A DNA stretch of 64,000 bases from an uncultured cyanobacterium (GTDB lineage: Bacteria > Cyanobacteriota > Cyanobacteriia > Cyanobacteriales > CAWUOF01), in NCBI GenBank assembly GCA_963744145.1, contig CAVUSO010000001.1:2880001-2944000 (forward strand), read 5' to 3'. Shown here piece by piece: positions 562-46,180 of this stretch; position 1 is the first letter of the stretch, and each line of letters opens with the position of its first letter. The translations under genes and the position numbers were made by a program. The notes beneath the pieces were generated by a model that ran no database searches, had not been told where the DNA came from, and worked only from the letters and a program-made list of their open reading frames with translations.

Positions 562-3500
562 CTACCGTACACCTTGACTGATAAAACCTGCCCAATAAAA
601 AGGAGAATTAAAAATCTGAGTATCTAGCGTCTTGCTTTTGAAGTGATCAATTTGCTTAAGAGATCGATCAAGATTGAGGTAATAAGTGCTAATTTCCTGA
701 TCATCAGGATAAACTTCAACCTGCTCTGTAGTCTGAGCGATTAATAGTTGCACATATTTCCTCATCGCTTTTAAATCAGGTAATAAATCCTTAACAGTTT
801 TGTTGCGTAAATCTTGTTGAGCCAATTGTAATGCTTTAGCTCGATCCTCTCCAGCTTGTCGGTATTGGTAATAAAATAAACAAAAGAAAGTCGTCGCTAG
901 AGCATTTACTGACCAAAGTGTACTAATTACACTTCTTGCACCTGCACATAGGAAACCTGCTGCAAGGGTGAGAATATCATCTGTAATATTAGGACTACCT
1001 AAATTAGTTTCGCAACAAGAAAGAAAAATTTCCACTAAGTGGGGCATCCGCCAACCTGGACTCATTAATTGTCCCAAAGTCAGATGACCATCTCCTAATT
1101 GCAAAGCAGATTCTAAAGGACTACTTAAGTTTGAACCTGCATGGTGACTAGAATGTAAGCCCCGTAATTGGGAATTTTTAGTTAATTGACGATAATTGTC
1201 AACCGTAGCTTGTTGCTTTCCTTTCAAACGCTGGGGTTCCGGAATACCTAAAAATTTAGCAATTTGTTCACACTCATAGGCTGCCATTACCAAATCATTA
1301 GTAGCATCTTCAATCGTGGCATATTTTGAACCAGCTAGAGCAGGATATGGATCTTTTACTTCCCTGTCGTGACAATAGCCCAGGATTTGGGCACTAGGAA
1401 CAACCCGGAGACAAAATAAATCACCAAAATATCCATTTCTGCTGTTTAAGGAGGGATCAACAGGTAAAGCAGCAAAGGGGAGAAGATGTAATAAAATATG
1501 AGGAATCAGAATTAATTCCTCAATTTCTTGTAAACAGTTCTTAATTAGATCATTAAGGCAAAGTTTATTAGCAACCTCTTGCAGTGTTGCTCCCATCTTT
1601 TGGTTCCAGTTATCATTATCCTTGTAGTAGGGAATTAACCATTGATCACGCAGGAATATTTGTAAATCACCATAACCTGCATTTTCGCATTTATGTAACA
1701 GTAAAGATATTTTACTCCCAGATGGTAAAGACATTTGCTCTAACTGATTTCCAGAATTTTGAGAACGACGCAAAACAAAAATATAGGTATGTTCATTGGT
1801 ACTGTAGAAACTCAGTAGAGCAGTTTTGGGGGAATCAACAATTAATTCTTTGAGAGTTTCAAAATTAATCGGAGGGACTTCTAATCTATCCGCCAGAACT
1901 TTATCTTTTTTCCGTATCTCTAACCAGATTTGCTCTTTCTGTTTATACAATTCCTCTAAGATAACTTTAGTTTCCTCAAAGGATTTGTTACTCCGGATTA
2001 ATCTTTTCTCTGTAACAACAGGTTTATTAGCATCATCACTTTGTTGATTGAATTGTTCTTGGTTAATCTGCTTTTGAATAGCTTCGTATTGTTCAAGGTA
2101 TTCTCTAATATCTTCAGGAATATCTCCACCTTGATAGAGATCATTACTATACATTAATTCAACTAAATGGCGAGAACGGGCACGCTCTGTAAGTAAAATT
2201 GCCTCTTGATATAAACCCAAATTGATATAACATTGCAAAGCCTTATTATAGATATCAATAGCAGCTTCAAGAATTTCTTGTCGCCCTTTGTCAGTAGTTG
2301 CCCAAGTGCGAGTTTGTTCAACAGATTCGATCGCAGGTTCATAACCTTCTAGAGCAACTTGCCATTGTCCTAGTTTAAAGGCTAAATTACCCAAATTACG
2401 CCCAGCTCTGTGACAGTCAACAGGGAGAAGTTTAGGCTTAAAATATTCTAAAGCTTGACGATAATAATCAATCGCTTTTTGCTGATTAGTTTCCTTCTCG
2501 ACTCCGATCTCGGCTAGGGTTTGGTAAGCAATACCTAAATTAGTCAGAGTGGAAGAAAGGTCTTTCTCTAAACCTAAGCGGTTTCTGATTTCTGCGGCTT
2601 GGTGATATACGGCGATCGCCTCGCGTAAATTCCTTTCCCCATCCACGCCGATCTGGGCTAGGGTTCCGTAAGCAATACCTAAATTATTCAGAGTGGAAGA
2701 AAGGTCTTTCTCTAAACCTAAGCGGTTTCTGATTTCTGCGGCTTGGTGATATATGGCGATCGCCTCGCGTAAATTCCTTTCCCCATCCACGCCGATCAGG
2801 GCTAGGGTACTGTAAGCAATACCTAAATTATTCAGAGTGGAAGAAAGGTCTTTCTCTAAACCTAAGCGGTTTCTGATTTCTGCGGCTTGGTGATATACGG
2901 CAATCGCCTCGCGTAAATTCCTTTCCCCATCCACGCCGATCTGGGCTAGGATACTGTAAGCAATACCTAAATGAGTCAGAGTGGAAGAAAGGTCTTTATC
3001 TAAACCTAAGCAGTTACTGATTTCTGCGGCTTGGTGATATATGGCGATCGCCTCGCCTAAATTCCTTTCCCCATCCACGCCGATCTGGGCTAGGTTTCGG
3101 TAAGCTACACCTAAATTAGTCAGAGTGTCAGAAAGGTTTTTATCTAAACCTAAGCGGTTACAGATTTCTGCGGCTTGGTGATATATGGCGATCGCCTCGC
3201 CTAAATTCCTTTCCCCATCCACGCCGATCTGGGCTAGGGTTAGGTAAGCATTACCTAAATTAGTCAGAGTGTCAGAAAGGTCTTTCTCTAAACCTAAGCG
3301 GTTTCTGATTTCTGCGGCTTGGTGATATACGGCGATCGCAAATTTAATCTCATATTCTCGACAGCCTAGAGGAGATTGCAAAATAGTAATGCAAACGTCT
3401 CCCAATAATGCCGCGAGAGCATTTTGAGCTGATGGTTCTAAATTAGTTAAAACTGTTGTGAACCGTCCTTCAAAGACAGAAATCAAGGTAGAATCAAAAT

Positions 3501-14303: not shown

Positions 14304-14614
14304 TTTTTTCTTTCCATTATAAAATTTCCTGCCGATTCTATCACGATCGCCAAACTCACGCAACTATCAAGATTAAATCTAGTTAAAGGATTTGTTAGAC
14401 TTTTTGCTATGGATTGATCCCTCACAATGTAAATATATTTGAATAATTATTAACAAAATTATAAATATTGCTTGGGGTATGTTACAATAATTCTCTTTTG
14501 CTACTATGGTCTGACACAATACATAAAATATCATCAGGGTAAATAGCATTTATTGACGCTGATATTCCCCACTGCTTTATTATATTGAAGAGAAATATAT
14601 TTAAGCTTCAGCCG

Positions 14615-15256
14615 ATGTTACTTCGACCAGACGATCGCACTAAGTTAGACGATACCGATGATACTCTATTTTATTCCTTTCCCCGCTTTGTCACCCATGT
14701 GGATGAGGGATTTATGCAACAATTGACTCAATTATATCGCGATCGACTTAAACCGAATACTCGGATTTTTGATCTAATGAGTAGTTGGGTATCTCATCTT
14801 CCGGAAGAAATAAAATTTGCTCATGTTGAGGGACATGGTTTAAATGAAGAAGAATTAGCTAAAAATCCTCGTTTAAATCATTATTTCGTTCAAAATCTCA
14901 ATCAAAATCCCCAGATTCCTTTACCGGATCAGGATTTTGATGCTGTTATTAATTGTGTTTCGATTCAATATTTACAATATCCGGATGCGATATTTTCGGA
15001 AATTTACCGGATTCTTAAACCAGGTGGAATTGCAATTATTAGTTTTTCCAATCGGATGTTTTACCAAAAAGCGATCGCGATTTGGAGAGATAATTCAGAA
15101 GCTAACCGAGTCGAATTAGTCCAGAACTATTTTAAATCTGTATCAGGATTTAGTCAACCAGAGGTGATTATTCATAAGTCTAATTTTCCGAGTTTTTTAC
15201 AATTTTTAGGGACTGGTGGTGATCCTTTCTATGCGGTCATTGCTACTCGGATGTAA
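14615..15256 (+). CDS. Class I SAM-dependent methyltransferase
   Basis: FYSFPRFVTHVD, DLMSSWVSHLP and LKPGG motifs. Confidence 0.9.
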   Translation: MLLRPDDRTKLDDTDDTLFYSFPRFVTHVDEGFMQQLTQLYRDRLKPNTRIFDLMSSWVSHLPEEIKFAHVEGHGLNEEELAKNPRLNHYFVQNLNQNPQIPLPDQDFDAVINCVSIQYLQYPDAIFSEIYRILKPGGIAIISFSNRMFYQKAIAIWRDNSEANRVELVQNYFKSVSGFSQPEVIIHKSNFPSFLQFLGTGGDPFYAVIATRM

Positions 15257-15281
15257 CCAGAAATTTAATCTGATTATAGCG
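15239..15281 (+). repeat. 43-bp direct repeat, left copy (right copy 16750-16792)
   Basis: ATTGCTACTCGGATGTAACCAGAAATTTAATCTGATTATAGCG is identical at both positions. Confidence 0.95.
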
Positions 15282-16280
15282 CAATCGAGTTCAGTTAACT
15301 GTTGGTTGCATAGATTGAGGGCAAAGCATTTCGGTCATATTATTCTGAGTTTCAGCCATCATTTATGCGCCGAAATGCTTTGCCCCTACAAGGAACTGAA
15401 CTGGATTGGTATTTAATCAGCGATCGCTGGCAGATCAATCGGGTGTAGGGGCGAAGCATTCGGGCGATAATTTATCACTAAAATCGACTAATATTAGATC
15501 CGAATGCTTCGCCCTTCTTCTGCGCCGAGTTCCCAAAAAATTCTTAACTGAATGTATTGTAATATCTAGTTGATCTGTTGGTTGCATAGATTGAGGGCAA
15601 AGCATTTCGGTCATATTATTCTGAGTTTCAGCCATCATTTATGCGCCGAAATGCTTTGCCCCTACAAGAAACTGAACTGGATTGGTATTTAATCAGCGAT
15701 CGCTGGCAGATCAATCGGGTGTAGGGGCGAAGCATTCGGGCGATAATTTATCACTAAAATCGACTAATATTAATCCGAATGCTTCGCCCTTCTTCTGCGC
15801 CGAGCTCCCAAAAAGTTCTTAACTGAATGGATTGTAATATCTAGTTGATCTGTTGGTTGCATAGATTGAGGGCAAAGCATTTCGGTCATATTATTCTGAG
15901 TTTCAGCCATCATTTATGCGCCGAAATGCTTTGCCCCTACAAGAAACTGAACTGGATTGGTATTTAATCAGCGATCGCTGGCAGATCAATCGGGTGTAGG
16001 GGCGAAGCATTCGGGCGATAATTTATCACTAAAATCGACTAATATTAGATCCGAATGCTTCGCCCTTCTTCTGCGCCGAGTTCCCAAAAAATTCTTAACT
16101 GAATGTATTGTAATATCTAGTTGATCTGTTGGTTGCATAGATTGAGGGCAAAGCATTTCGGTCATATTATTCTGAGTTTCAGCCATCATTTATGCGCCGA
16201 AATGCTTTGCCCCTACAAGAAACTGAACTGGATTGGTATTTAATCAGCGATCGCTTGCCGATCAATGGGATGTAGGGGCG
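15282..16280. repeat. Tandem array of ~3.5 units of a 275-276-bp double-hairpin REP/MITE unit
   Basis: Each unit has hairpin A (AGGGCAAAGCATTTCGG..CCGAAATGCTTTGCCCCTAC), a HIP1 site, hairpin B (GTAGGGGCGAAGCATTCGG..CCGAATGCTTCGCCC) and AACTGAA..ATTG end motifs; two identical ORFs 551 bp apart confirm the period. Confidence 0.97.
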
Positions 16281-16307
16281 TTCGCGACAGCGTGCCGTAG
16301 GCATATG

Positions 16308-16749
16308 TTAGATTCTATAGAAGAGAAAAGAGAAGCAACCCGGTTTCACATCCCGATGGACTCGACGTTTCGGTTCTTGATGTAAATAAACCAATGCAGC
16401 ACCGATTTCCTTGACTATTTTCTCTACTTCTTCCTCCCTTAACACCCCTTTCTCTAGACGTTTCCCTAGTGTTTCTGCTCCTAATTCCATTACTAAATAC
16501 AAAAGTTTTATTCCCTTAATTGTAGTTTCCCCCGGTGCAAAACAACGGATTAAATTCGGATGCTCTAAATTTACTGCTGCTATTAATTCTTCTAATTGTT
16601 TTTGCTGATTTTGCTGATCTCCTTCAGGTAAAATTAGCTTGACTGCTACTTCCCGCATCACCCGATCGCCCACTACTTCATCAGCACGGAAAACTGCCCC
16701 ATATCCGCCCACTCCTAAGAGTTTTTTCCGGTAATATTTTCCGTCAATA
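16308..16749 (-). pseudogene. Internally deleted Ser/Thr protein kinase fragment
   Basis: LGVGGYGAVF, VAVK and HRDVKP, then an abrupt jump to FSFLFYRI*; no DFG or C-lobe; 5' end cut at the 43-bp repeat. Confidence 0.85.
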
Positions 16750-16792
16750 ATTGCTACTCGGATGTAACCAGAAATTTAATCTGATTATAGCG
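16750..16792 (+). repeat. 43-bp direct repeat, right copy
   Basis: Identical to 15239-15281. Confidence 0.95.
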
Positions 16793-39974: not shown

Positions 39975-40630
39975 CAGTTTTCCTCCCTAAATTGACTTGC
40001 TGAAAATCTAACTATGACCCACTCGAAAAATTACATAAGACTACTGATTTTATGATTTTAGCCAATATTTTGAAATTTTGGGCGATCGCGCTTTGATAAT
40101 TTTACCGTATTACTGATGTATCAATTCAAACTTGACTTTAACCGTATCCCAGAATATTTATAATCGACTATGTAGTTTTTTGTATCGCGATCGCGATACC
40201 ATTATATTAGATCCGAATGCTTCACCCTTCTAAAACCGAGATATTCCAAAAAATTCTTAACTGAATGGATTTTAATATATAGTTGATCTGTTGGTTGCAT
40301 AGATGGTGAGGGCAAAGCATTTCGGTAATATTATCCTTCGCTTCAGCAATTATTTATGCGCCGAAATGCTTTGCCCCTACGAGGAACTGAACTGGATTGA
40401 TATTTAATCAGCGATCGCTTACAGATCAATGGGGTGTAGGGGCGAAGCATTCGGGCGATAATTTACCGCTTAAACCAGCAATATTAGATCCGAATGCTTC
40501 GCCCTTCTTCTGCGTCGAGCTCCCAAAAAATTCTGAACTGAATGTATTTTAATATATAATTGATCTGTTGGCTACATAGATGGCAGGGCAAAGCATTTCG
40601 GTAATATTATTCTTCCCTTCGACTACGCTC

Positions 40631-42087
40631 CAGGGTAAGAGCATCTCAATTAGGCTTGACACAAGGATTAAGAAGGATCTAATGTAGACTCAGAGAAACA
40701 AGAAAGGAGGATTTGGAGCATATAATTATTATCCATAGCAGCGCGTTTACTTTTCTGGCGTAAACTGCGTTTGTAAGTTGACTCGCGATTAAGAGCGTTG
40801 AGAGCTAATCGTCTGAGCAGAGAAAAGTTACGAGGACTGTGAAAAGAACGAATGCGACAGCTATCTTCAAAAAAAGTACAATCTAAAGTCCAGTGTGCAG
40901 AATTTTCGATTTCCCAATGTTGACGAATAGCTCGACCTATGAATTCAGCATTGTTGTCTAAAGAAGTAAGATAGTATTGAGTCTCGCAAGTAGTTTTGTT
41001 CCAAAGATGACGGATACGATGAATGATGACAATACTTTTTAAACCTGCCCATAATTTGGGTTGGTAAAGGTCAGGAATGGCCGTAATAGGGAGCACCCAA
41101 ACTTCACGAATTTCCACCCGATGATGCCCTTTCTCAATCCGTTTGTCATGAGTGAAATCAATTCCTGAAAAATTATTTTTCTGTGCAGTTTGGAAGAATT
41201 GTTGTACCTGATTATGTAAAGTTGGATGATTGGCTTTAAGTGTCAGAATATAATCAGCTTTTTTATCAATAATCTTTTGAGCAATTTCGGTTTGGGTCCC
41301 CATCGCATCAATAGTAATAATTGAGCCAGCGATATCAAGTAACTCTAGTAATGCTGGAATAGCTGTAATTTCATTGGATTTATCTTGGACTTTCATTTGT
41401 GCTAAAACTAATCGTTGTTCACTAGCCCACGCACTAATCAAATGTAATGCTGATTGTCCTTGATTTCGGTCATAGGAACCTCTGACAGTCTTCCCATCTA
41501 TGGCAATTACTTCTCCTCCCATTTGAGTAACTAAGGTGTTTACCCAAGCTTGAAAACATTGCTCCAATTGGTTGGGGTTAATACTTTCAAATACTCGACG
41601 AAAGGTATCATCTGAGGGAATACCATTGGGTAATTCTAAAAACTCTTCTAGCCAAATTTGTTTACTAATCCCATAATTCTCAATGTCTTCCCAGCCTTGT
41701 GCTCCAGCTATTATGACCAGAATTGCCATCACTAAAATGTCTATCAATAAGTGTTTTTTTGTTCGGTTTACTCTCGGGTCTTCAACATCTTCAAAATGCT
41801 TGACTAAACTCTGTTGTATTTCCATCAAGTCAGCTACTACTTGGTTTTTCCTAGCAGAATGGGAGTTTTGTTTAGCATTAGCTATATTGATATCGAACCC
41901 TTGAGACATTTGAATATTCCTGGAGATTATGAGTTGGACGGTATAGTTTTTCACCTACCACTCTCTATGCTCTTTTGTCAACTATTTTCTCTACCAGATT
42001 TGTGATGTTCTGATCTCGATGGCTATATTTCATATTTGATGAAAATATTCTGTATCCTCGGTGACAAAATTAGATGCGCTAACCCTG
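40631..42087 (-). mobile_element. Complete ISAs1-family insertion sequence (1457 bp)
   Basis: TIRs CAGGGTAAGAGCATCT / AGATGCGCTAACCCTG; 10-bp TSD GACTACGCTC at 40621-40630 and 42088-42097. Confidence 0.96.
40668..41909 (-). CDS. ISAs1-family DDE transposase
   Basis: DPR, GIPSDDTFRRVF, IDGKT, KSNEITAIP, TIDAMG and RQHWEIEN motifs; frame open to 41954. Confidence 0.96.
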   Translation of the reverse strand: MSQGFDINIANAKQNSHSARKNQVVADLMEIQQSLVKHFEDVEDPRVNRTKKHLLIDILVMAILVIIAGAQGWEDIENYGISKQIWLEEFLELPNGIPSDDTFRRVFESINPNQLEQCFQAWVNTLVTQMGGEVIAIDGKTVRGSYDRNQGQSALHLISAWASEQRLVLAQMKVQDKSNEITAIPALLELLDIAGSIITIDAMGTQTEIAQKIIDKKADYILTLKANHPTLHNQVQQFFQTAQKNNFSGIDFTHDKRIEKGHHRVEIREVWVLPITAIPDLYQPKLWAGLKSIVIIHRIRHLWNKTTCETQYYLTSLDNNAEFIGRAIRQHWEIENSAHWTLDCTFFEDSCRIRSFHSPRNFSLLRRLALNALNRESTYKRSLRQKSKRAAMDNNYMLQILLSCFSESTLDPS

Positions 42088-42242
42088 GACTACGCTCAGG
42101 GTAAACGCTTCAGCAATTATTTATTCGCCGAAATGCTTTGCCCCTACGAGGAACTGAATTGGATTGATATTTAATCAGCGATCGCTTACAGATCAATGGG
42201 GTGTAGGGGCGAAGCATTCGGGCGACAATTGAACAATCAAAC

Positions 42243-42290
42243 TTTACCCTGAGTTTACCCTGAGCGTAGTCGAAGGGCGTAGTCGAAGGG
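42243..42290 (-). repeat. 24-bp micro-element inserted inside a copy of itself
   Basis: TTTACCCTGAG[TTTACCCTGAGCGTAGTCGAAGGG]CGTAGTCGAAGGG. Confidence 0.92.
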
Positions 42291-43001
42291 CAGTAATATT
42301 AGATCCGAATGCTTGAGCCCTTCTTCTGTGCCGAGATATCACAAAAAATTCTTAACTGAATGGATTGTAATATCTAGTTGATCTGTTGGTTGCATAGATG
42401 GTGAGGGCAAAGCATTTCGGTAATATTATCCTTCGCTTCAGCAATTATTTATGCGCCGAAATGCTTTGCCCCTACGAGGAACTGAACTGGATTGGTATTT
42501 AATTAGCGATCGCTTACAGATCAATGGGGTGTAGGGGCGAAGCATTCGGGCGATAATTTACCGCTTCAACCAGTAATATTAGATCCGAATGCTTCGCCCT
42601 TCTTCTGCGCCGAAATCCCCAAAAAATTCTTAACTGAATGGATTGTAATATCTAGTTGATCTGTTGGTTGCATAGATGGTGAGGGCAAAGCATTTCGGTA
42701 ATATTATTCTTCGTTTCAGCAATTATTTATGCGCCGAAATGCTTTGCCCCTACGAGGAACTGAACTGGATTGGTATTTAATCAGCGATCGCTTACAGATC
42801 AATGGGGTGTAGGGGCGAAGCATTCGGGCGATAATTTACCGCTTAAACCAGCAATATTAGATCCGAATGCTTCGCCCTTCTTCTGTGCCGAAATCCCCAA
42901 AAACATTATAGTTTAAGCAACTAATGAAATGCTGTACACCCCATTCCTACGTCATCCAATTTTTCAGAAAAATATTGTTGATCTTTTAGAAAAGCTATAT
43001 G

Positions 43002-44510
43002 TTAGAGTCTAGAGAAGAGAAAAGAGATACCCCCACACAACCCCCACACAACAGCACACACAACGCCCCGCACATCAAACTCCCCACCCCCCCAACCCCC
43101 CCACCCACAATCAGGGAGGTGTCCCACAGGAGCAGATATATTAAAAGTGAGGTCAGAGTAGCTCAACCAGCTTCCTCCTTTTTTCCAACCGACTTCATTT
43201 GCTAGTTTAACATAAGTATCGTAATCATAACTATCTAGCTTACCACCCAATTTGAGCCAGATTTTCTTCTGGACTGAAAACCCAAATTTGTCATTAGAAT
43301 GCTTTAACCACAACTGGTCAATGATCCGCAGTTCATTGTTCGGAAAATTACGACAGTTATCTTCTGTTAAGTATCCCTCTTTTTCCCTGTTCATAATTTT
43401 TAACATGACTCGACCAGTTTCTTGATCTGCTTCTTGCCATTTTTTGTCTGATAATAATTGCTCCAGTTTCCTCAAATCAGCTTTAGGTGTAACTAAATTA
43501 ACTTGGGGTGATGGAGGAGAAATTGGTTGAGGAATTGGTTGAGGAGGTTTAACAACAGGTTGAGGAATTGAGGTCGGTTGTAAATTCGCTAAAACCTCCT
43601 GTGCTGATGAAAACCGATCGTCTATCCGATCCTGTAACATCTTATCTAAAACTTTCGCTAAATCTCGATTAACAGAAATCCCTTTTTTCTGTAACCATTC
43701 TTTCCACACCCAGGATAAACTATTGAGATTGAAAATTTCATCCACAACTGAGCCATTTCTTTCCGTTGGTAATACTCCCGTTAATAATCTAATCGCTGTT
43801 ACTGCTAAACTATATAAATCACCAGAAGGGTGAAAACCTCCTCTCATTTGTTCTGGGGGTGCATAACCAGGAGTTCCTACTCCCGTCCCCAATTTAGTCA
43901 TTACTGTCGTACTGACTTGTTTAGATACACCAAAATCAATTAACACCAAATTGCTCACTTGACTATAAATCGCTGCATCGAGGGGGATACTACGACGGAT
44001 AATATTTTCTGGCTTAATATCTCGATGAATTACCGACTTTTTATGAATAAAATCTAAAACAGGTAAGATTTCTAATAGGAAATTTTTCACCTGAGTTTCG
44101 CTCAATCTCCCCGACTGTTGTAATTCGGCTAATAAATTTTGACCGGGAATAAATTCTTGAATTAAATATAATATCCCCTCCTGTTCAAAAAAAGCTAATA
44201 AATCAGGAATTTGGGGGTGTTTCCCTAATTTTTCTAATAAATCTGCTTCTTGTTCAAACAATTGAATACATTTTTGTAAAGCACCACTACCTTGTTGTAC
44301 GGGTAAGAATTGTTTAATCACACATTGAGTATTACGTCGATCTGTATCCACCGCGATCAAAGTTCGACCAAATCCACCCTCACCCAGGGAACGGATCAGA
44401 TGATAGCGATCGCGCAAGAACATTTTTGTCCCACAACCCTGACAAAACTTAGATTGAGGGGGGTTTTCGTAGGAACAATTAGGGTTAAGACATTTAATAA
44501 GGTTACTCAT
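43002..44510 (-). CDS. Ser/Thr protein kinase with N-terminal 4-Cys ribbon and C-terminal GUN4-like domain
   Basis: CLNPNC..CQGCG; GEGGFG, HRDIKPEN, DFG, GTPGY; Pro-rich linker; WQEADQET, IDQLW..SNDKFGFSVQKKIW, GHLP. Confidence 0.93.
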   Translation of the reverse strand: MSNLIKCLNPNCSYENPPQSKFCQGCGTKMFLRDRYHLIRSLGEGGFGRTLIAVDTDRRNTQCVIKQFLPVQQGSGALQKCIQLFEQEADLLEKLGKHPQIPDLLAFFEQEGILYLIQEFIPGQNLLAELQQSGRLSETQVKNFLLEILPVLDFIHKKSVIHRDIKPENIIRRSIPLDAAIYSQVSNLVLIDFGVSKQVSTTVMTKLGTGVGTPGYAPPEQMRGGFHPSGDLYSLAVTAIRLLTGVLPTERNGSVVDEIFNLNSLSWVWKEWLQKKGISVNRDLAKVLDKMLQDRIDDRFSSAQEVLANLQPTSIPQPVVKPPQPIPQPISPPSPQVNLVTPKADLRKLEQLLSDKKWQEADQETGRVMLKIMNREKEGYLTEDNCRNFPNNELRIIDQLWLKHSNDKFGFSVQKKIWLKLGGKLDSYDYDTYVKLANEVGWKKGGSWLSYSDLTFNISAPVGHLPDCGWGGWGGGEFDVRGVVCAVVWGLCGGISFLFSRL

Positions 44511-44609
44511 AATTTTGGAGACCTGATGTGATAAAATCAATTAGGTGGTTCTGATCATATCAGAAAAATTAATGGCGTTGCTGATGATCGGCAGACACCA
44601 AGAGATAAT
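44406..44609 (+). repeat. ~204-bp direct repeat, left copy (right copy 45978-46180)
   Basis: Kinase 5' end plus the upstream intergenic region; both copies start at GCGATCGC. Confidence 0.93.
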
Positions 44610-44660: not shown

Positions 44661-44981
44661 ATGACTCCTCTATTAATGCTTCAACCCTCATCTCTAATCT
44701 CCTCTGGTGTTAAAATGAGGCAATTCGGTAATATTTATTTATTCAGGTTTACCGATGAACTCCAGTTTCGCTTTGAAGAACTTTTAGAAAAGAAAAAAGC
44801 TCATATACTCACTCCTAACGAAGAAGCTGAATATATGGGAATATCAGAACTAGAGCAGATTTTTACCCTAATTAACGCTCAACTTGCAGCCAAAAGCCAA
44901 TGGTGTCCAACTCAACTCGAAGACTTGTACGACGACGAGCCCGATACCTCTGTGAATACTGTCATTCCCCCGAATATCTAA
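44661..44981 (+). CDS. Small protein paired with an HNH nuclease (antitoxin-like)
   Basis: FRFTDELQFRFEELLEKKK..LTPNEEAEY; overlaps the HNH gene. Confidence 0.75.
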   Translation: MTPLLMLQPSSLISSGVKMRQFGNIYLFRFTDELQFRFEELLEKKKAHILTPNEEAEYMGISELEQIFTLINAQLAAKSQWCPTQLEDLYDDEPDTSVNTVIPPNI

Positions 44982-45346
44982 GTCCAGACCGTTTCACAAT
45001 TGACCATATTATGCCTCAATCTTTAGGAGGATCTGACCAACCTGATAATCTTGCTTTGGCTTGTCATCGCTGTAACGAGCGCCGTTATAACTTTACATCA
45101 GGAATTGATCCCCAAACTCAAGCAGAGATCCCTTTGTTTAATCCCCGTCAACAACAGTGGTCTGATCATTTTATTTGGACAAAAGACGGTACAATAATTT
45201 TAGGAAAAACTCCTACAGGTAGGGCTACTGACCATCGCATTGACTTAAATGATAAACGCATTGATGAGCCATCTATTCAAATTGCCCGTCGTTTTTGGAT
45301 AGTAGCAGGTTGGCATCCACCTCAGCTTGATCCGCTTCAAGAATGA
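44900..45346 (+). CDS. HNH endonuclease
   Basis: CEYC..IDHIMP..GG..NLALACHRCN and LFNPR motifs. Confidence 0.93.
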   Translation: MVSNSTRRLVRRRARYLCEYCHSPEYLSPDRFTIDHIMPQSLGGSDQPDNLALACHRCNERRYNFTSGIDPQTQAEIPLFNPRQQQWSDHFIWTKDGTIILGKTPTGRATDHRIDLNDKRIDEPSIQIARRFWIVAGWHPPQLDPLQE

Positions 45347-45363
45347 CGAAGTTAAGGTGTTGC

Positions 45364-45934
45364 TTAATCAGCGATCGCTTGCAGATCAATCCGGTGTAGG
45401 GGCGAAGCATTCGGGCGATAATTTACCGCTTAAACCAGCAATATTATATCCGAATGCTTCGCCCTTCTTCTGCGCCGAGCTCCCCAAAAATTCTTAACTG
45501 AATGGATTGTAATATCTAGTTGATCTGTTGGTTGCATAGATGGTGAGGGCAAAGCATTTCGGTAATATTATTCCTCGCTTCAGTAATCATTTATGCGCCG
45601 AAATGCTTTGCCCCTACAAGGAACTGAACTGGATTGGTATTTAATCAGCGATCGCTTGCCGATCAATCGGGTGTAGGGGCGAAGCATTCGGGCGATAATT
45701 GAACAATCAAGCCAGCAATATTATACCCGAATGCTTCGCCCTTCTTCTAAAGCCGAGAGTTCCCAAAAAATTCTTAACTGAATGTATTATATAATATTTA
45801 GTTGATCTGTTGGTTGCATAGGTGGCAATGGCAAAGCATTTCGGTCATATTATTCTTCGTTTCAGTCATCATTTATGGGCCGAAATGCTTTGCCCCTACA
45901 AGGAACTGAACTGGATTGGTATTTAATCAGCGAT
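45364..45934. repeat. Third array of the double-hairpin unit (2 units)
   Basis: Hairpin B at ~45396 and 45673; hairpin A at ~45546 and 45830; starts and ends at AATCAGCGAT. Confidence 0.95.
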
Positions 45935-45982
45935 AAACCTACGGCTCGTTGCCGCGATAAGCCTACGGCTCGCTGCCGCGAT
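45935..45982 (+). repeat. Two tandem 24-bp units inserted within a HIP1 site
   Basis: GCGAT[AAACCTACGGCTCGTTGCCGCGAT][AAGCCTACGGCTCGCTGCCGCGAT]CGC. Confidence 0.85.
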
Positions 45983-46180
45983 CGCGCCAGAACATTTTTG
46001 TCCCACAACCCTGACAAAACTTAGATTGAGGGGGGTTTTCGTAGGGACAATTAGGGTTAAGACATTTAATAAGGTTACTCATAATTTTGGAGATATGATG
46101 TGGTAAAATCATTTAGCTACTTTTATCATATCAGAAAAATTAATAGTGTTGCTGATGATCGGCACACACCACGAAATAAT
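45978..46180 (+). repeat. ~204-bp direct repeat, right copy (contains a kinase 5' stub on the minus strand, 45978-46082)
   Basis: Aligns with 44406-44609, with scattered mismatches. Confidence 0.93.

Follow-up and report, generated by a model that had tools for sequence, protein, structure and literature searches.

The window analysed here, 64,000 nucleotides of the chromosome of an uncultured cyanobacterium (C1:2880001-2944000, in a genome of four contigs with a completeness of 96.3% whose chromosome, C1, has 7.63 Mb and 39.4% G+C), carries on its minus strand a kinase-GUN4 gene (43002..44540) that ends in an unusually composed variable tract. The open reading frame (ORF), listed with 512 residues from a TTG start, encodes a zinc ribbon, a Ser/Thr kinase and a GUN4 domain. 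The kinase domain (Pkinase, PF00069) spans residues 46-317 (E 4e-40) and has the catalytic-loop sequence HRDIKPEN of the Hanks-type Ser/Thr kinases. The GUN4 domain (PF05419) spans residues 354-477 (E 1e-39; 136.4 bits against a cut-off of 29.2; profile positions 6-124 of 141), and the match to the N-terminal zinc ribbon is weak. The database twin of the protein (P0001) has 502 residues, and its 90% cluster consists of one sequence from one contig. The C-terminus reads ...APVGHLP-DCGWGGWGGGEFDVRGVVCAVVWGLCGG-ISFLFSRL-stop; in the ORF translation, the peptide between GHLP and the constant tail is the one given in the preliminary description of this DNA. At the DNA level, again on the minus strand, the GHLP codons (43113..43124) are followed by the variable tract (43028..43112), which encodes DCGWGGWGGGEFDVRGVVCAVVWGLCGG, by a constant tail element (42995..43027) and by the non-coding remainder of the 3' flank (42923..42994), which is common to the paralogues and ends near ...GCAGCATTTCATTA.

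The variable tract has 85 nt, with 51 G, 27 T, 4 A and 3 C on the coding strand. The adenine depletion noted earlier for positions 43011-43110 is borne out by a plus-strand composition of 50 C, 38 A, 9 G and 3 T, which is 3 coding-strand A per 100 nt. Seven places in the 7.63-Mb chromosome have at most 3 A or T in 100 nt, and the other six are tandem coding repeats by inspection. Among 45-nt windows with at least 93% G+T, of which the chromosome has 14, the six non-tandem ones are all GUN4 tails. The motif G3-T-G7-TT-G7-T-G4 was likewise located at the positions first reported, 43082..43106 on the coding (minus) strand; it is of the G-quadruplex (G4) type, with four runs of at least three G, loops of 1-7 nt and two G7 runs. 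The minimum free energy fold of the transcript, computed with the G4 energy model of ViennaRNA, places a quadruplex at this site (-63.1 versus -41.5 kcal/mol, on the model only). The chromosome has 84 motifs of the G4 type, 9 of them inside the 7,200 nt of GUN4 tails, and 135 runs of at least 7 G or C, 6 of them in the same 7,200 nt. At the other end of the tract, an 11-mer is exactly duplicated in tandem (43029..43050, minus strand; plus-strand ACCCCCACACA, twice). The longest periodic run there is 13 at period 11, which a fraction of 0.028 of 500 shuffles reaches, and the duplication is a trace of slippage.

The G/T skew exceeds what the encoded amino acids require. We resampled synonymous codons for the actual peptides, with codon usage taken from the long ORFs of the genome (1.2 million codons). 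In the 28 codons of the window tract, third-position A occurs 0 times versus 7.1 expected, and none of 20,000 resamplings is as low. For this and the seven paralogous tracts described below, pooled to 159 codons, third-position A occurs 15 times versus 43.5 expected and third-position G or T 137 times versus 96.6 expected (0 of 200,000 resamplings in each case). Glycine is encoded by GGG or GGT in 48 of 58 tract codons, and GGA is the commonest glycine codon in the domain bodies of the same genes. The bias is weaker in the 32 other GUN4 tails of the genome (third-position A, 182 versus 221 expected; P ~1e-4). The composition bias therefore acts on the DNA itself.

When positions 42961-43140 were used as a blastn query against the whole genome, both flanks of the tract were found to recur, and the stretch between them was without a second copy. 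The constant 26-mer has nine copies, eight of which end a GUN4 domain: the window copy, those at C1:416468, 7455665, 7458205 and 7499156, and three internal units at 7458791, 7459391 and 7459988 that are parts of a 1066-residue kinase with four tandem GUN4 domains (4xGUN4). All nine are on the plus strand; the constant element thus keeps to one chromosome strand, with the genes on the minus strand, though its copies are spread over 0.4, 2.9 and 7.5 Mb. The locus at C1:7455500-7461500 (L050) holds two adjacent kinases with near-identical kinase domains, one of 488 residues with one GUN4 domain and the other of 1066 residues with four.

In an alignment of the eight cassettes (win43k, a416k and b to g), the domain and the 3' flank align by column, and nothing aligns between CACCTCCC and TCTCTTTTCTC. 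The domain DNA is 90-97% identical, with synonymous divergence (dS) of 0.028-0.297. The ratio of nonsynonymous to synonymous divergence (dN/dS) is roughly 0.2-1.6, mostly 0.3-0.7, and such high values indicate that relaxed or diversifying selection acts on the whole GUN4 domain, beyond the tract. For the 3' element, identity is 89-98% among win43k, a416k, b and c, reaches 96-98% among e, f and g, and falls to about 60-70% where the downstream context differs between cassettes; blastn matches to the 3' flank at C1:416427, 7458164 and 7499115 are 95-100% identical. The tracts, in turn, have 85, 73, 58, 56, 61, 51, 48 and 51 nt, in all three phases, and G+T makes up 70-96% of each. Gapped alignment gives tract identities of 42-75%, no better than unrelated G/T strings; tracts e and g, compared without gaps, match at ~43% of positions versus 48% expected from composition (hand count). 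The same is seen in two metagenome loci (L028 and L038), in which the last 240 domain bases are 98% identical and the tracts match at 0.53, as unrelated G/T strings do. The proposal that this is a hypervariable region thus stands in so far as it is sharply bounded by the GHLP codons and the constant 3' element and is unalignable among eight paralogues, with a G/T skew common to the paralogous tracts; the origin proposed for it, a diversity-generating retroelement (DGR), does not stand.

The relationships among the eight domains are themselves mosaic. At 72 polymorphic domain sites, copy f is closest to b and e through two thirds of the domain and to d in the remainder; the mosaic test gives P 0.0055 for the b-f fragment, and d and f have common variants on both sides of the tract. 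Gene conversion therefore takes place among the cassettes, and it can give the flanks a younger look than the tracts.

The constant tail element is pyrimidine-only and then stop-bearing, and it can be read in any frame. In the window it gives ISFLFSRL, SLFSSLDSNI and LFSLL, each followed by a stop, with the stops staggered by 7 nt (43009-43011, 43002-43004 and 42995-42997). One element of a second class in the same genome (class II) gives SLLSRKDL, LFSRAKTCNL and SSLAQRLVTCKI, each again followed by a stop. Lag-7 identity, 18/29 in the window element and 17/38 in the class II element, is the highest of any lag in each, and it is because of this 7-nt periodicity that every frame has an LFSxL-type ending and a stop. 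Heptanucleotide repeats of the short tandemly repeated repetitive (STRR) type occur in filamentous cyanobacteria, and the 7-nt periodicity, by which all three frames of the tail give a similar peptide with staggered stops, is common to both; the unit here, unlike STRR repeats, is short, degenerate and functionally placed at GUN4 gene ends rather than in a long intergenic array. In the 4xGUN4 kinase, translation passes through the internal tails in the SLFSSLDSNM frame and on into the Pro-rich linker that follows.

In terms of protein structure, the last 167 residues were modelled with AlphaFold2 from a 27-row alignment (pLDDT 87.2). The model has the helical 'cupped hand' GUN4 fold and superposes on Synechocystis GUN4 (4xkb, 4xkc, 7e2t) with Z 22.1 and an rmsd of 1.5 A over 140 residues, model residues 2-167 falling on residues 83-228 of the chain. 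Tract residues 136-155 have pLDDT <50, whereas the terminal helix at 155-166 (...GGISFLFSRL) has ~95. GHLP, the conserved upstream anchor of the tract, corresponds to residues 205-208 of Synechocystis GUN4, and G128, H129 and P131 are invariant in the 27-row GUN4 alignment. According to the available excerpt of the Synechocystis study (PMC1084334), the α6/α7 loop lies over the 'greasy palm', into which Pro208 and Leu210 reach; Arg214 and Arg217 are modelled as holding the porphyrin carboxylates, and Val218, Ala219 and Tyr223 of α7 line the palm. On the superposition, the tract is predicted to replace about residues 209-217, the porphyrin-facing end of the α6/α7 loop, with the constant tail as α7. 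In a relative read in the LFSLL frame (L025), a terminal helix is predicted at 142-152 with a block pLDDT of 77-91, which is weak support since the alignment held members in other frames.

The canonical Arg214/Arg217-bearing loop end is absent from the kinase-GUN4 protein, in which DCGWGGWGGGEFDVRGVV... stands directly after GHLP. Because this arginine loop is missing, the protein, which belongs to the GUN4-domain and Hanks-kinase families, is nevertheless no canonical Gun4. With the canonical GUN4/Ycf53 Mg-chelatase cofactor (Sll0558; 1Y6I, 4XKB, 7E2T) it has in common the fold, the GHLP motif and a last helix that is α7 of the 'greasy palm'. The canonical protein has a fixed post-GHLP segment with Leu210, Arg214 and Arg217, modelled to bracket the porphyrin (PMC1084334, in the excerpt cited above); here, the spacer is variable, rich in G, W and V and without the arginine pair, and the domain is fused to a kinase. 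The earlier suggestion that a ligand domain is being diversified is reasonable, because the predicted structure puts the tract in a ligand-facing GUN4 loop; it is the DGR as the means that fails.

A remote DGR would act by mutagenic retrohoming, rewriting the tract from a template repeat specifically at adenines. The anatomy has some resemblance to DGR variable regions, both of the Bordetella phage Mtd type and of cyanobacterial C-type-lectin (CLec) targets, in that a variable piece sits at the 3' end of a signalling protein beside a constant 3' element, which could pass for an initiation of mutagenic homing (IMH) site. Cyanobacterial DGRs often target kinases and caspases, the same protein world as that of the GUN4 cassettes, according to the part of PMC7517822 that was available, and three RVT_1 genes are present in the genome. 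However, the search for a non-coding copy differing at adenines found none. In this A-tolerant scan, mismatches to a 93-nt region were counted on both strands of the four contigs and A positions in a candidate template were forgiven; even the best non-self match, which falls in A-rich DNA, retains 14 non-A mismatches over the 93 nt. Nor did blastn find a second copy of the tract. Tract lengths of 48-85 nt in all three phases differ from the constant length of a DGR variable region, and the tract lies in a GUN4 loop, with no C-type lectin or Ig-like fold. The cyanobacterial targets described in the same part of PMC7517822 are CLec domains on kinases and caspases, with GUN4-like domains there only as accessories. 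For the three RVT_1 genes, Pfam gives RVT_1 only, and no tract repeat or tract-linked template was seen with them. With no template repeat, no adenine-specific pattern, variable length, another fold and no linked reverse transcriptase (RT) or Avd found, the DGR reading is refuted for the assembly examined, at its 96.3% completeness, and we give it next to no credence as an account of the tract.

One of the three RVT_1 genes (E 2e-41) lies at C1:5091596-5099400, followed by an ORF that is Cas1-like by look and by an array with a ~73-nt period; with these putative labels, the region may be an RT-associated CRISPR locus.

In Neisseria, a G4 upstream of pilE starts RecA-dependent copying from silent pilS donors. 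Here, too, a G4-type motif stands at a variable gene segment, with the difference that the motif is the variable piece itself and that no donor copy is present. Conversion of the pilE type, to which the preliminary description had appealed, was therefore not borne out: by blastn, no tract has a second copy, and so no donor cassettes were seen.

The architecture is family-wide. The genome has 48 GUN4 ends, nearly all of which have a spacer of variable length rich in G, W, V, C, F and L after GHLP and then one of a few endings, unlike its canonical Gun4 (C1:1115094, ...TNQLRGVRV...), which has no such spacer. Of 581 homologues in other cyanobacteria the best 120 were compared, and a tail of 5-70 residues is present in 106 of these. 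The first class of endings comprises SFLFSRL-type (19), LFSLL-type (15) and LFSSLDSNT-type (7), the second LLSRKDL-type (9), FSRAKTCNL-type (12) and SLASRLVDCNI-type (23), with 21 others; the tail motif is thus read in all three frames across the family. Most cyanobacterial GUN4-like domains, unlike canonical Gun4, have a low-complexity Gly/Trp/Val/Cys/Phe/Leu spacer between GHLP and the last helix, and the DNA of this spacer consists almost entirely of G and T in young gene copies. At the DNA level, the motif served to retrieve 26 loci, 18 of them parsable (the rest being three of unrelated DNA, one kinase fragment and four with variant GHLP codons). Tract length modulo 3 is 0, 1 and 2 in 6, 8 and 4 of the 18, and each class has its own ending. 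In L026, L030, L034 and L040 the spacer is of ordinary composition.

Close relatives differ in how far their tails have diverged. Homologues P0099 and P0100 are identical over the last 125 domain residues and differ in the length and frame of the tail. In orthologue-like pairs with domains 94-100% identical (P0098/P0104/P0105, P0059/P0067 and P0071/P0076) the tails are identical, and a Microcoleus set has tails 83-100% identical at 80-98% domain identity; since such tails are kept in other genera, hypermutation is not continuous. Loci L032 and L045 are intermediate: their flanks are about 95-97% identical, and their 60-nt tracts can be aligned, with ~25% substitutions and indels of -2, -1 and +3. 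Of 40 relatives compared, the closest belongs to a different genus in the same family. No metagenome contig matched in an exact 27-mer scan; soil-metagenome run X1 contains the organism, with contigs identical over 43431-44521, and in none of the four runs compared does a contig span 43044-43104, inside the tract.

These data bear on whether the tract is a contingency locus, in which the G7 and G5 runs would shift frame at a high rate within the population and recode the loop without killing the protein; few stops in the tract and a tail working in all frames would then give standing sensor diversity. Phase-variable contingency loci change at homopolymeric tracts by slipped-strand mispairing. 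The likeness lies in two G7 homopolymer runs within a coding region, in the enrichment of runs of at least 7 in GUN4 tails given above (6 of 135 in 7,200 of 7.63 million nt), and in relatives that differ in frame, as P0099 and P0100 do with identical domains. It extends to the compensating indels of L032 and L045, to the three-frame reading of the tail across the family and to the terminal helix predicted in two frames. Here, unlike in classical contingency loci, a frameshift would leave the gene switched on, with a recoded loop and a similar helix at the end. However, a TGA follows the G runs in one alternative frame of the window tract, just 3 of the 8 young tracts lack stops in every frame, and tails are identical in the orthologue-like pairs. 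Furthermore, the three internal 4xGUN4 tracts all keep the read-through frame, so that the frame is under selection there. We regard frequent frame switching as unlikely to be the main process.

The DNA downstream of the tail raises the question of a role for the nucleic acid itself. The conserved non-coding flank continues in class I to ...TTTCATTACCTG and in class II over ~130 nt. The class II element is kept in eight paralogues (nhmmer E 1e-28 to 1e-41) whose GUN4 domains match the query at ~38-54%. Because 21 of 22 nhmmer matches of the class II element sit at GUN4 ends, the 3' element is no independent mobile repeat. Across genera, the 26-mer and a few blocks are well kept, and the rest of the 3' element is ~0.62 identical; the mean cross-genus identity of the 26-mer, 0.93, is inflated, the loci having been found with that motif, and carries no evidential weight. 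The G-rich transcript end, as an RNA quadruplex, might together with the 3' element be a regulatory or stability signal, with the peptide as a by-product. That the bias acts on DNA, that 9 of the 84 G4 motifs lie in the tails, that a quadruplex is favoured by the G4-aware energy model and that the class II element is kept in eight paralogues would all suit such a signal. Against it, RNAalifold found no consensus fold of the 3' element on either strand, the fold z-score is -0.98, and a scan against Rfam gave nothing above the gathering thresholds, its nine weak miRNA or snoRNA rows falling in 276-nt repeats. A promoter and terminator consensus scan of the element found 0 sites, the spacers of L026, L030, L034 and L040 have ordinary composition, and the tail is predicted with confidence as the structural helix α7. 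We therefore think a nucleic-acid function highly improbable.

By eye, TTGACA-like and TTGTCA-like hexamers are seen in the class II elements. An attC or miniature inverted-repeat transposable element (MITE) was considered for the 3' element and rejected, the complementarity of its ends (CTAAC/GTTAG) being only 5-6 nt by eye. A conserved antisense ORF was also rejected on inspection: the ATG upstream of the constant element is in differing frames between genera.

The account that we consider probable is that of a low-complexity loop prone to indels and slippage, the flanks of which are kept alike by gene conversion. Tract turnover would proceed by ordinary, locally frequent events, namely small indels in runs of G, short duplications in tandem and base substitutions, in a loop on which the structure places little constraint, and gene conversion would keep the flanking domain and the 3' element of the paralogues alike. 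Turnover and flank conversion together would yield near-identical cassettes with unrelated tracts. G/T-only DNA contains no stop codon and, whatever the frame, encodes only hydrophobic or glycine residues; with a 7-nt-periodic tail that can be read in all three frames, frameshifting indels would be tolerated. Traces of tandem duplication agree with such turnover: a tandem periodic run at P <=0.04 is present in 4 of the 8 own tracts (the 11-mer twice in the window, (GGT)n, a 6-mer and a 14-mer), and the summed periodicity statistic of 33 tracts is 235 versus 198.6 +/- 7.7. By its behaviour the tract is most like a fast-evolving low-complexity loop with contingency-locus features. We infer this mutational route from the comparisons above, and the resulting loop variety may tune what the sensor binds.

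A number of observations weigh against this account. The tracts, with base frequencies of G 0.54, T 0.32, A 0.10 and C 0.045, have G- and T-run lengths and dinucleotides that match shuffles or expectation, as random G/T strings rather than slippage products would, and their Lempel-Ziv complexity is not lowered (649 versus 658 +/- 7). Copies b and e have dS 0.028 and unrelated tracts, so that flank conversion or wholesale tract replacement is needed. No two of the eight tracts are alike, even though the three internal 4xGUN4 units have one duplication junction in common and for that reason must once have had the same tract. Over 33 tails, which are related and non-independent, the identity of the nearest paralogous domain correlates with tract G+T (Spearman rho 0.61, P 1.7e-4) and, negatively, with tract A (rho -0.70, P 6e-6); this fits tracts that are born G/T-pure and then decay. 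The predicted tolerance of frameshifts is also incomplete. Among older spacers, 4 of 32 are stop-free in the other frames, with 90 stops versus 95 expected, and of the young tracts those of b, e and g (3 of 8) are open in all three frames, whereas in that of the window one alternative frame meets a TGA past the G runs.

Several of these points would be accommodated by a dedicated G/T-biased generator, which would make near-random G/T DNA (C/A on the other strand) de novo, to decay later by ordinary mutation. It would act during the copying of a cassette or the repair of a break at the constant element; such a break might arise, for example, from a quadruplex or a purine-pyrimidine tract, and the filler would be added by an untemplated or slipping polymerase or a reverse transcriptase. 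The Bernoulli-like G/T statistics, the complete replacement of tracts at dS 0.028-0.15, the correlation of tract purity with a close paralogue, the sharp and fixed boundaries on both sides and the unrelated tracts of 4xGUN4 units with one duplication junction all agree with such a generator, as do the restriction of irregular G/T windows in the chromosome to GUN4 tails and two truncated kinase fragments, independent of each other, with their junction at the constant element (at 16308, via a 7-nt filler, and in L021). However, no enzyme, template or intermediate has been identified, tails are stable in orthologue-like pairs, and L032/L045 form a graded intermediate. The mosaic flanks offer a conventional explanation, tandem duplications are found in 4 of 8 tracts, and part of the bias is accounted for by selection on the protein for a loop that is hydrophobic and rich in glycine. 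We hold such a generator to be a doubtful alternative to slippage and flank conversion. In its broadest form, in which the GUN4-like sensors of filamentous cyanobacteria would have a built-in, template-free diversity generator that refills a break- or slippage-prone site with near-random G/T DNA, the proposal is speculative and probably wrong. If true, the conserved, 7-nt-periodic 3' element, with its tail open to reading in all three frames, would be a site at which each event makes a new ligand-facing loop free of stops and polar residues. The lectin domains that DGRs diversify on kinases and caspases of the same kinds would then have a counterpart with a new mechanism.

Two further sources of the skew were considered. 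Strand-specific deamination (A>G, C>T) would make the copies converge on one purine/pyrimidine pattern, and on inspection it was rejected for that reason, since the tracts are unalignable and differ in length. An untemplated Abi-type RT as the source of C/A-rich DNA would be speculation; the available part of PMC9508834 gives no product composition.

The constant tail itself recurs at 16308-16334 with 3 mismatches in 27, in agreement with the paralogue at 16.3 kb named in the preliminary description, where it ends a truncated kinase ORF (16308..16712, minus strand; 134 residues, ...HRDVKPGCFSFLFYRI-stop). This ORF matches positions 10-126 of 263 of the Pkinase profile and has neither a GUN4 domain nor a G/T tract; it breaks off after the catalytic-loop sequence HRDVKP, which is followed by 7 nt and then by the copy of the constant tail element. 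The fragment is a truncated relative of the L050 kinases. A second, independent truncated kinase N-terminus that runs into the constant tail element is found in another cyanobacterium (L021, a contig of a metagenome-assembled genome, 599-729).

In many cyanobacterial kinases, caspases, trypsins and NLR-like proteins, a GUN4-like domain is described as the predicted sensor end, and proteins with such ends have been linked to cell-death and anti-phage systems (PMC7159879; bioRxiv 10.1101/2022.07.19.500537; both in the available excerpts). The loop described here changes fast, is extreme in composition and is predicted to lie where canonical GUN4 has its porphyrin-contacting arginines. The frame-independent reading of the tail is the unusual feature: a gene end written so that frameshifts would be survivable gives a handle on the diversification of a predicted sensor, and a false DGR lead is removed. 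In a literature search confined to one collection of full texts, neither the G/T tract nor the three-frame tail was found described.

The surroundings of the gene are rich in repeats. A unit of ~276 nt, tandem as well as dispersed, occupies window positions 15282-16300, 40273-40589, 42040-42962 and 45327-45934 and flanks the kinase-GUN4 gene and other genes; it comprises a long hairpin (GGGGCGAAGCATTCGG...CCGAATGCTTCGCCC) and the HIP1-like GCGATCGC. Four such units, together with the truncated kinase fragment and its constant tail element, make up a 1,511-nt block at 15239-16792 flanked by exact direct repeats of 43 nt, and a methyltransferase-like ORF (14585..15256) ends with the first of these repeats. 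The first ~45 codons of the kinase-GUN4 gene and its upstream region (44406-44609) are duplicated 1.57 kb upstream (45978-46180), with 96% and 91% identity. These duplicates bracket an HNH endonuclease gene (44900-45346; PF01844, E 2e-14), 276-nt repeats and an overlapping 106-residue ORF without a Pfam match (44661-44981), a near-identical copy of which lies between two kinase-GUN4 genes at about C1:7457.5 kb. The kinase-GUN4 gene is followed, after about 1 kb, by an insertion sequence (IS) transposase gene (40668-41954; DDE_Tnp_1_assoc and DDE_Tnp_1), which has 11 full chromosomal copies with 99.5-100% protein identity; only 3 of the 48 GUN4 ends lie within 4 kb of a match to this IS, which indicates no special link. 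No gene family recurs downstream of GUN4 ends except further GUN4 or kinase genes. Elsewhere in the window, positions 2446-3321 hold at least five tandem copies of a 144-nt unit with 85-89% identity.

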